Source: Thermoanaerobaculia bacterium
GTDB lineage: Bacteria > Acidobacteriota > Thermoanaerobaculia > UBA5066
Direction: 5' to 3'
Assembly: GCA_963816185.1 (NCBI GenBank)
Contig: CAWFJJ010000025.1
Location: forward strand, 1-64,000
Length of the DNA: 64,000 nt
This document shows positions 45,562-45,834 of the stretch, piece by piece (position 1 is the stretch's first letter; each line of letters begins with the position of its first letter). Both the position numbers and the translations under genes were made by a program. Below the pieces are notes generated by a model. The model ran no database searches, had not been told where the DNA came from, and saw nothing but the letters and a program-made list of their open reading frames with translations.

Positions 45562-45596
45562 AAAAAAACCGGCCCTCTCGCGTGAGAGGGCCGGTT
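45562..45596 (-). terminator. Intrinsic terminator (attenuator) in the metY leader
   Basis: Minus strand AACCGGCCCUCUC-ACGC-GAGAGGGCCGGUUUUUUU, 31 nt upstream of the metY ATG. Confidence 0.85.
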
Positions 45597-45652
45597 GGGG
45601 AATCCGACGAGCTGTTACGAGCGTGCTCTCGGTTCGCCTGGTTTCGCGCGGT

Positions 45653-45796
45653 CTATGTGACGGACCTCGCGAAGCCTCCGTCCGTCTCCCGCGAAGGAGC
45701 GCCGGACATCGAGCACATGCACATGCAAATTCGAACCGCCGCGACTCTGATGATTTCAGTCGCGTCGAGGACGGCAGGCGAAAGGCGGTTCAGCAT
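45653..45796 (-). CDS. Putative Met/Cys leader peptide (47 aa)
   Basis: MLNRLSPAVLDATEIIRVAAVRICMCMCSMSGAPSRETDGGFARSVT*; CMCMCSM cluster at 45727-45707. Confidence 0.75.
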   Translation of the reverse strand: MLNRLSPAVLDATEIIRVAAVRICMCMCSMSGAPSRETDGGFARSVT

Positions 45797-45805
45797 GTTC
45801 GAGGG

Positions 45806-45834
45806 ACCTTAAAGGGGACGACTCGAGGAGTCAA
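45806..45834 (-). promoter_or_regulatory. Sigma-70-type promoter of the met leader
   Basis: TTGACT-17 nt-TAAGGT, 9 nt upstream of the leader ATG. Confidence 0.6.

Follow-up and report, generated by a model that had tools for sequence, protein, structure and literature searches.

The locus considered here lies on the minus strand of a 64,000-nucleotide (nt) stretch of DNA, referred to as the window, from a Thermoanaerobaculia bacterium of the phylum Acidobacteriota, belonging to an uncultured lineage (GenBank assembly GCA_963816185.1, contig CAWFJJ010000025.1, positions 1 to 64,000). A gap of 338 nt separates a gene for an RNA-binding protein (rbp, 46234-45869) from metY (45530-44205), and is occupied by a short open reading frame (ORF) with alternating cysteine (Cys) and methionine (Met) codons, followed by an intrinsic terminator. 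This leader was examined as a candidate leader-peptide attenuator of metY and the adjoining metX, the ORF of which overlaps the metY stop codon by 4 nt. An earlier note, made from the sequence without database searches, had described the arrangement and proposed such a function; the sequence features that it listed, among them a 47-codon ORF, a CMCMCSM codon cluster and a 13-base-pair (bp) hairpin with seven T, are confirmed at the coordinates given below, and the attenuator interpretation itself is supported by the analyses that follow.

45653..45796, minus strand: leader ORF, 47 codons plus stop, lacking a Shine-Dalgarno sequence; start codon invariant in 22/22 leaders, in-frame indels
45707..45727, minus strand: control codons Cys-Met-Cys-Met-Cys-Ser-Met; cluster present in 22/22 leaders
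45562..45596, minus strand: intrinsic terminator (segments 3 and 4), 13-bp stem, 4-nt loop, seven T; 13 pairs kept in 22/22 leaders
44205..45530, minus strand: metY, O-acetylhomoserine sulfhydrylase, homocysteine synthase (TIGR01326, 653.7 bits against a cut-off of 495.1)
43138..44208, minus strand: metX, homoserine O-acetyltransferase (TIGR01392, E 4e-82, below the curated cut-off)
45806..45834, minus strand: promoter-like element, -35-like hexamer (45834-45829), 17-nt spacer and -10-like hexamer (45811-45806); layout recurs in 20/20 relatives
45869..46234, minus strand: rbp, glycine-rich RRM-type RNA-binding protein gene upstream of the leader (NCBIfam NF058537, above cut-off; 3' end aligned in relatives)

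The identities that the earlier note had given to metY and metX are backed by NCBIfam, with the models for metX at E 4e-82, below their cut-offs. The best NCBIfam subfamily for MetY, above its cut-off, is the O-acetylhomoserine/O-acetylserine sulfhydrylase subfamily. The metY gene has its own purine-rich ribosome-binding stretch approximately 8 nt 5' of the start codon.

Coding-type conservation of the leader

Used as the query of a DNA search, the leader was recovered from 22 of the 24 other genomes of the same genus, with one weak match among 16 genomes from other genera of the order. Regions upstream of metY were taken from 21 loci, 20 of which contain the leader ORF, the twenty-first (L009) being interrupted by a run of 100 N. 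The alignment on which the following counts are based (A1) comprises these 20 leaders together with L033 and L076. Five sequences were left out, namely L032 and L087, whose leader peptides are identical to those of L004 and L022, L014, which meets a contig end, and L024 and L025, which are weak matches. At loci L009 and L026 of genome G013 the terminator occurs twice, about 155 nt apart and flanking the run of 100 N, which probably reflects an assembly gap or scaffold join and not a true duplication.

Comparison of the 22 leaders revealed conservation of the kind expected of a translated sequence. The start codon is invariant throughout, and each of the 12 distinct indel runs within the ORF (3 to 51 nt) is a multiple of three, against only 3 of the 11 that lie past the stop codon. 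A Cys/Met-rich upstream ORF, the conservation of which the earlier note had put forward for checking, is thus present in all 22 aligned leaders and tolerates frame-preserving indels only. Openness of the frame alone is weak evidence of coding, since the DNA is G+C-rich and frame +2 is mostly open: a stop interrupts frame +1 in 18 of the 22 leaders, and frame +2 in just five.

Within the ORF, the cluster contains between two and five Cys codons and between two and five internal Met codons, and in none of the 22 leaders do two Cys codons stand side by side. In the window's clade the core of the cluster has changed by synonymous third-base substitutions in Cys codons, by a single Cys-to-Ser replacement (L013) and by a single Ile-to-Met replacement (L033). 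Between clades the Cys-Met units number from about two up to five, and the frame is kept throughout. Judged from sequence, this variability fits expansion of a six-base unit. The cluster is also rare within its own genome. A six-frame scan of the 5.09-Mb genome returned five stop-to-stop frames with a seven-residue window containing at least five Cys or Met residues, both being represented; the leader is the sole one of these with six of seven, and the other four frames are unrelated to it. A genome search with the exact 15-nt pattern of the cluster matched this one site, and revealed no further copies of the leader. The repeated Cys-Met unit (45726-45713; A1 columns 71-84) is partly self-complementary and appears as a 4-bp hairpin in the RNAalifold consensus; a hairpin at this position might impede passage of the ribosome or of RNA polymerase through the control codons.

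Since the ORF is small and conserved and its Cys codons are clustered, it could also be taken to encode a functional Cys/Met-rich peptide, for example a metal binder or the precursor of a modified peptide, in which case the position before metY would be coincidental. This seems exceedingly improbable given that the length of the product (27-50 residues), its N-terminal sequence and its number of Cys residues vary freely. Moreover, the neighbours of the leader (rbp, metY, metX, an ORF without a family match, a LysE-type transporter and a histidine kinase) include no modifying enzymes, and the link to a terminator and metY recurs across phyla.

Predicted mutually exclusive pairings in the leader RNA

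The terminator stem (45596-45567) and its seven-T run, which ends at 45562, are positioned 32 nt ahead of metY, and all 13 base pairs are retained in the 22 leaders, 12 of them being invariant. The 5' arm and loop of this hairpin (45594-45580) double as the 3' strand of a predicted antiterminator, which involves the following additional elements.

45678..45692, minus strand: segment 2, antiterminator strand inside the ORF (Arg-Glu-Thr-Asp-Gly-Gly codons); best partner of the terminator 5' arm and loop
45760..45780, minus strand: segment 1, N-terminal codons 6-13, pairs with segment 2 in minimum-energy folds and RNAalifold; core 45777-45773
45643..45673, minus strand: hairpin S, enclosing the leader stop codon (45655-45653); 6 of 9 pairs with changes on both sides among the 22 leaders
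45604..45632, minus strand: small conserved hairpin (H2) between S and the terminator; four closing pairs kept in 22/22 leaders, three invariant and one changed on one side

The earlier note had pointed out that the strand at 45688-45678 resembles the 3' arm of the terminator and could serve in an antiterminator. The resemblance holds, and the computed pairing in fact reaches 4 nt further 5' (to 45692) and into the terminator loop. In 19 of 20 leaders, no other part of the leader pairs as well as segment 2 with the 5' arm and loop of the terminator, the energies ranging from -12 to -21 kcal/mol (-16.8 kcal/mol in the window), and in the twentieth leader the best partner of the 5' arm is found directly beside segment 2. 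The note had also suggested that the strand might fold locally, as GACGGAC with GUCCGUC (45686-45680 with 45665-45659). Such a hairpin is possible; however, it was chosen neither by the minimum-energy folds nor by RNAalifold, and its place is taken instead by the covarying hairpin S across the stop codon.

The structures available to a transcript bearing a stalled ribosome were examined by folding only the RNA 3' of the ribosome, up to the terminator loop. With the A site on the last codon of the cluster, between 9 and 12 antiterminator pairs were present in the minimum-energy structure of all 22 leaders, and in this sense the proposed antiterminator forms in the stalled-state folds. These folds replaced an approach in which the ribosomal footprint was masked while the 5' RNA was still free to pair across it, and in which the antiterminator appeared in nine of 11 leaders of the window's clade and in one of nine others. 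Conversely, in ribosome-free minimum-energy folds and in the RNAalifold consensus the bases of segment 2 pair with the N-terminal codons and the terminator is kept. The RNAalifold pairing was obtained without input from the analyst, and the segment 1:2 helix has an energy of -28 kcal/mol in the window. With this upstream partner strand, an addition to the elements that the earlier note had listed, the predicted logic would comprise all four segments. Segment 2 can therefore engage either segment 1 or the terminator 5' arm, and the latter either segment 2 or its own 3' arm. The ribosome-binding site of metY lies 3' of all the predicted helices.

The codons of segment 2 belong to an Arg-Glu-x-Asp-Gly-Gly stretch that is conserved in all 22 leaders, and Gly/Arg-rich stretches also follow the cluster in distant leaders described below. 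These peptides might be expected if the nascent chain itself caused arrest in the manner of TnaC, with a free metabolite as the signal for the ribosome to halt at Arg-Glu-x-Asp-Gly-Gly, or if the leader acted on translation or through Rho. However, the RNA that encodes Arg-Glu-x-Asp-Gly-Gly coincides exactly with the strand paired to the terminator arm, and in the distant leaders the Gly/Arg-rich stretch changes along with the terminator sequence, which argues that it is the RNA and not the peptide that is selected. A strong intrinsic terminator and a metY ribosome-binding site outside the predicted structures are likewise at odds with arrest or with action on translation or Rho, which we regard as highly improbable.

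A model for attenuation at metY-metX

Taken together, the ORF, its cluster and the pairings described above are best accounted for by a ribosome-mediated transcription attenuator that would read the supply of charged tRNA-Met and tRNA-Cys, a reading to which we assign a probability of roughly three in four on the basis of sequence comparison and predicted folds. We infer that the leader is translated, that ribosomes stall within it, and that the transcript either begins at the leader start codon or slightly upstream of it, or else reads through from rbp. The ribosome would then translate the 47-codon leader. When both Met and Cys are plentiful it would pass the cluster and segment 2 and reach the stop codon, where it would melt hairpin S and sit between segment 2 and the terminator. 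Upon its release, segment 2 would re-pair with the N-terminal codons of segment 1. In both situations the terminator 5' arm would be left to its 3' arm, and RNA polymerase would halt at the T run 32 nt before metY. When either Met or Cys is short, the ribosome would stall on the cluster and part segment 1 from segment 2. The latter starts 15 nt past the cluster, so should be free during the stall, and could capture the emerging terminator 5' arm and loop through 12 pairs, in a helix closed over hairpins S and H2. The terminator would then be unable to form and metY-metX would be transcribed.

A number of observations weigh against this reading, several of which concern the helices. The antiterminator has two internal mismatches, and is weaker than the terminator, the median helix energies being -27 kcal/mol for segment 1:2, -26.5 kcal/mol for the terminator and -17 kcal/mol for the antiterminator. 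In the trp leader the antiterminator is likewise the weakest helix, winning only kinetically. Alignment cells are paired in 90% of cases across the antiterminator helix, in which nine of the 13 pairs never vary and none is altered on both sides; with an invariant core, covariation within the genus neither supports nor refutes the helix. Stalls at the first or middle codon of the cluster, as opposed to the last, caused seven of the 22 leaders to fold otherwise at both positions, with zero to two antiterminator pairs, and a further two leaders lost antiterminator pairs upon a stall at the middle codon only. Similarly, while the segment 1:2 pairing surpassed composition shuffles (no more than 10 of 200 as good) in eight leaders, it was no better than these in the other 14. 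Finally, the distance from the end of segment 2 to the stop codon is 23 nt in the window's clade, compared to 11 nt in a clade with short leaders. In the latter, a ribosome at the stop codon would cover segment 2 directly. In the window's clade it would leave segment 2 uncovered, and the terminated state must consequently rely on the 1:2 pairing or on steric exclusion, which makes this state the least secure step of the model.

The start of the transcript is a second area in which the evidence is divided. The earlier note had proposed a promoter, TTGACT-17-TAAGGT, immediately upstream of the leader. The hexamers are indeed present at 45834-45806, and the layout recurs in 20 of 20 relatives, with retention of the five leading bases of the first hexamer and of the initial T-A and final T of the second, and with a spacer of 17-18 nt. 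Against this, a consensus promoter scan of 45300-46100 called no sites, having missed the element because the second hexamer fits just three of the six consensus positions; the case for a promoter is therefore one of conservation. The leader start codon at 45796 is 9 nt past the second hexamer, a distance shared by 19 of the 20 relatives, and no Shine-Dalgarno sequence precedes the ORF, which suggests that the leader may start leaderless or nearly so. The near-leaderless transcript that the note had envisaged is thus a deduction from geometry, and is qualified by RNA contigs from some relatives that extend upstream of the start codon.

The contigs in question are assembled from four metatranscriptome runs, derive from relatives mostly of less than 95% identity, and show neither transcript ends nor levels. 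Two contigs from RNA library X15 extend to 45853 and 45854, which places them 5' of the proposed start and brings them within 15 nt of the rbp stop codon, and a 769-nt contig from X16 spans the terminator from metY to rbp. Both observations are further points against the model, carry-over of DNA being possible. Conversely, contigs from two studies stop level with the 3' margin of the terminator, two in X15 at 45570 and those of X18 at 45562, and provide a weak hint of termination. In the window's clade, rbp has no terminator ahead of the leader promoter (45835-45868). The contigs that reach 5' of the start therefore caution against an exclusively leaderless transcript, and the attenuator terminator may mark the end of rbp transcripts in the window genome, or govern them. 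In relatives L016, L018 and L023 a separate G+C-rich hairpin and T run is located 3' of rbp, and the leader is still kept.

These same observations bear on whether the region might be a structured, metabolite- or protein-binding RNA, or simply the 3' untranslated region and terminator of rbp, with an incidental open frame. The lack of a separate rbp terminator in the window's clade, the contigs that run from the leader almost to the rbp stop codon, the conservation of several helices, one of them with covariation, and the ease with which frames stay open at high G+C (frame +2 in 17 of 22 leaders) would all be in keeping with this. It is nevertheless very unlikely, since indels inside the ORF preserve the frame without exception, the start codon is invariant and the cluster varies at synonymous positions, and since the same layout of Cys/Met ORF and terminator is found, in unrelated sequence, in other lineages. 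Retention of the leader in the three relatives with a separate hairpin 3' of rbp argues in the same direction, as does the outcome of comparisons with Rfam. A scan of 45300-46100 at E values up to 10 returned two chance-level matches only, to microRNA and snoRNA models, and 19 related metY loci gave no matches at the gathering score. Hence no riboswitch or T-box model in Rfam explains the leader, a check that the earlier note had proposed.

Sulfur metabolism and related leaders

The genome does employ a riboswitch elsewhere in the pathway. An S-adenosylmethionine (SAM)-I riboswitch (RF00162, 69.3 bits, above the gathering score) is located on another contig (C29:209994-210126, minus strand; positions 1501-1633 of locus L113), directly upstream of a gene for a bifunctional homocysteine S-methyltransferase/methylenetetrahydrofolate reductase (MTHFR), and is the sole SAM-I match in the genome. 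Since it precedes the methyltransferase/MTHFR gene, the methylation step would be controlled by SAM while homocysteine synthesis would be under the leader. A partition of the pathway between these two sensors offers a testable picture of how flux is apportioned.

The role of Cys is less readily explained. Two cysK genes above the family cut-off are present in the genome and tell against the proposed dual sensing, since Cys should be obtainable without MetY and the logic of sensing it is accordingly not obvious. A cystathionine beta-synthase family search of the genome gave no match above cut-off, a result that is uninformative on reverse transsulfuration. The putative link between Cys and the metY-metX operon might possibly lie in a shared dependence on sulfide, or in an O-acetylserine sulfhydrylase side activity of MetY; alternatively, the Cys codons could be passengers.

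Leaders of similar design were sought at more distant metY loci. MetY was found in 23 of 81 genomes of the class, and a Cys/Met-rich leader ORF, mostly Met with one Cys, is present at seven of the eight class metY loci outside genus g29, whereas 17 metY loci within g29 have no Cys/Met leader. Ten g29 genomes (loci L126-L143) each contain two MetY paralogues, about 56% and 50% identical to the query; both lack a Cys/Met leader and an Rfam match, and five of the weaker copies carry one in-frame TAG each. Further afield, 75 of 80 related MetY loci were scanned, five being omitted, three of them for want of upstream sequence. At the threshold used, 13 of the 75 have Cys/Met leader ORFs, the carriers including another acidobacterial metagenome-assembled genome (MAG) and eight records labelled delta proteobacterium, Syntrophobacterales, Deltaproteobacteria or Thermodesulfobacteriota; the Gemmatimonadaceae and archaeal MetY loci in this set yielded none at the same threshold.

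Seventeen distant leaders were examined, seven from the class and ten from the acidobacterial MAG and the delta, Syntrophobacterales and Thermodesulfobacteriota records. The leader sequences look unrelated, yet every one is followed by a terminator, of different sequence, and in all 17 the main run of pairing to the terminator 5' arm falls 0-25 nt past the cluster and inside the ORF, the matching strand varying in step with the terminator; this count was obtained with no shuffling control, which lessens its weight in favour of the model. Cys codons are present in 16 of the 17. At L055, from a 'delta proteobacterium' MAG, two tandem Cys/Met-rich leader ORFs precede metY, each with a terminator and a matching antiterminator strand.

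These comparisons also bear on which amino acid matters. With the mechanism unchanged, a single amino acid, most likely Met, could be the real signal, with Cys codons carried along as passengers of a six-base repeat expanded by slippage. The predominance of Met with a single Cys in the leaders of other families of the class, the tandem six-base units that vary in copy number between clades, and the genome's own cysK genes are all in accord with such a scheme. Nonetheless, it is considered unlikely: between two and five Cys codons are kept in each of the 22 leaders, Cys recurs in all but one of the distant ones, and in the delta-proteobacterial leaders the Cys codons lie outside any simple repeat. 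A link to Cys is also feasible in so far as the best subfamily of MetY includes O-acetylserine sulfhydrylase. We therefore favour an attenuator whose leader would, as the earlier note had proposed, read both sulfur amino acids.

The leader very probably belongs to a wider, undescribed class. A more ambitious proposition is that this class is large, spans phyla and replaces SAM riboswitches ahead of metY, and that the present member is a leaderless, two-input sensor that arose by expansion of the six-base unit and is gated by the position of the ribosome within nested helices. Under such gating, a ribosome in the 1:2 loop would signify the open state and one in the 2:3 loop the closed state, and as a two-input device the leader would open the operon upon a shortage of either charged tRNA. 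In its entirety this is advanced only tentatively, and we would put its chances at rather less than even.

Leader-peptide attenuation is classically exemplified by the trp, his, leu, thr, phe and ilv leaders of Proteobacteria, and has been described for Trp, His, Leu, Thr, Phe and Ile/Val, with a translational form for Cys; Met biosynthesis, by comparison, is a standard example of control by SAM riboswitches, T-boxes or MetJ/MetR-type regulators. Like the classical attenuators, the metY leader is short and rich in codons for products of the pathway, has an intrinsic terminator ahead of the first structural gene and a predicted antiterminator that draws on the 5' arm of this terminator, and may have an upstream strand able to sequester the antiterminator. 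It differs in that its control codons are Met and Cys, in alternation, and are placed in the loop between segments 1 and 2 instead of within segment 1; segment 2 is part of the ORF, the stop codon lies within a covarying hairpin, the ORF has no Shine-Dalgarno sequence and may be leaderless or nearly so, and the host phylum is the Acidobacteriota. With SAM riboswitches it shares a choice between terminator and antiterminator that would control Met-pathway genes; however, the leader has no aptamer match, and its signal would be tRNA charging as read by the ribosome, not SAM. The design is thus that of the classical attenuators, but both the amino-acid specificity and the host phylum are new, and parts of the anatomy are unusual.

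Classical amino-acid operon attenuators are summarised in the introduction of the preprint of Canestrari et al. (bioRxiv 10.1101/834739), the sections of which drawn on here describe mycobacterial polycysteine leaderless ORFs that act on translation by sequestering a downstream ribosome-binding site, with transcription termination tested and excluded. The same sections state that attenuation mediated by an upstream ORF was previously undescribed for Cys. As in that system, a short upstream ORF would report the supply of Cys-tRNA to a sulfur amino-acid operon through its Cys codons. There, according to those sections, the Cys codons are consecutive and the genes Cys-related, whereas here Cys alternates with Met and the ORF is associated with an intrinsic terminator and metY-metX. 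Cys-run leader peptides before sulfur amino-acid genes were predicted in Actinobacteria by comparative genomics (Seliverstov et al. 2005, PMC1262725), and are similar in this respect to the present leader; they are without terminators, the relevant parts of that paper reporting no conserved terminator hairpins in the Mycobacterium leaders and no conserved RNA structures upstream of Met operons. The parts of PMC8079986 consulted contained nothing relevant, and a full-text literature search, the scope of which stopped short of attenuator surveys in subscription journals, found no terminator attenuator with a Met or Met/Cys leader peptide.

If the model is correct, the oldest known principle of RNA-based control would also have been recruited for the sulfur amino acids, with a leader that senses tRNA charging instead of SAM in a poorly studied phylum, and with parallel versions in other phyla. 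The leader would in addition represent a compact, portable candidate sensor of Met or Cys limitation. Downstream of metX, the minus strand has two further neighbours, at 41853-42533 and 42540-43322. One is an ORF without a family match that overlaps metX at its 3' end; the other encodes a translocator of the LysE type (Pfam PF01810, E 2.7e-16), which may be an amino-acid exporter co-transcribed with metY-metX.

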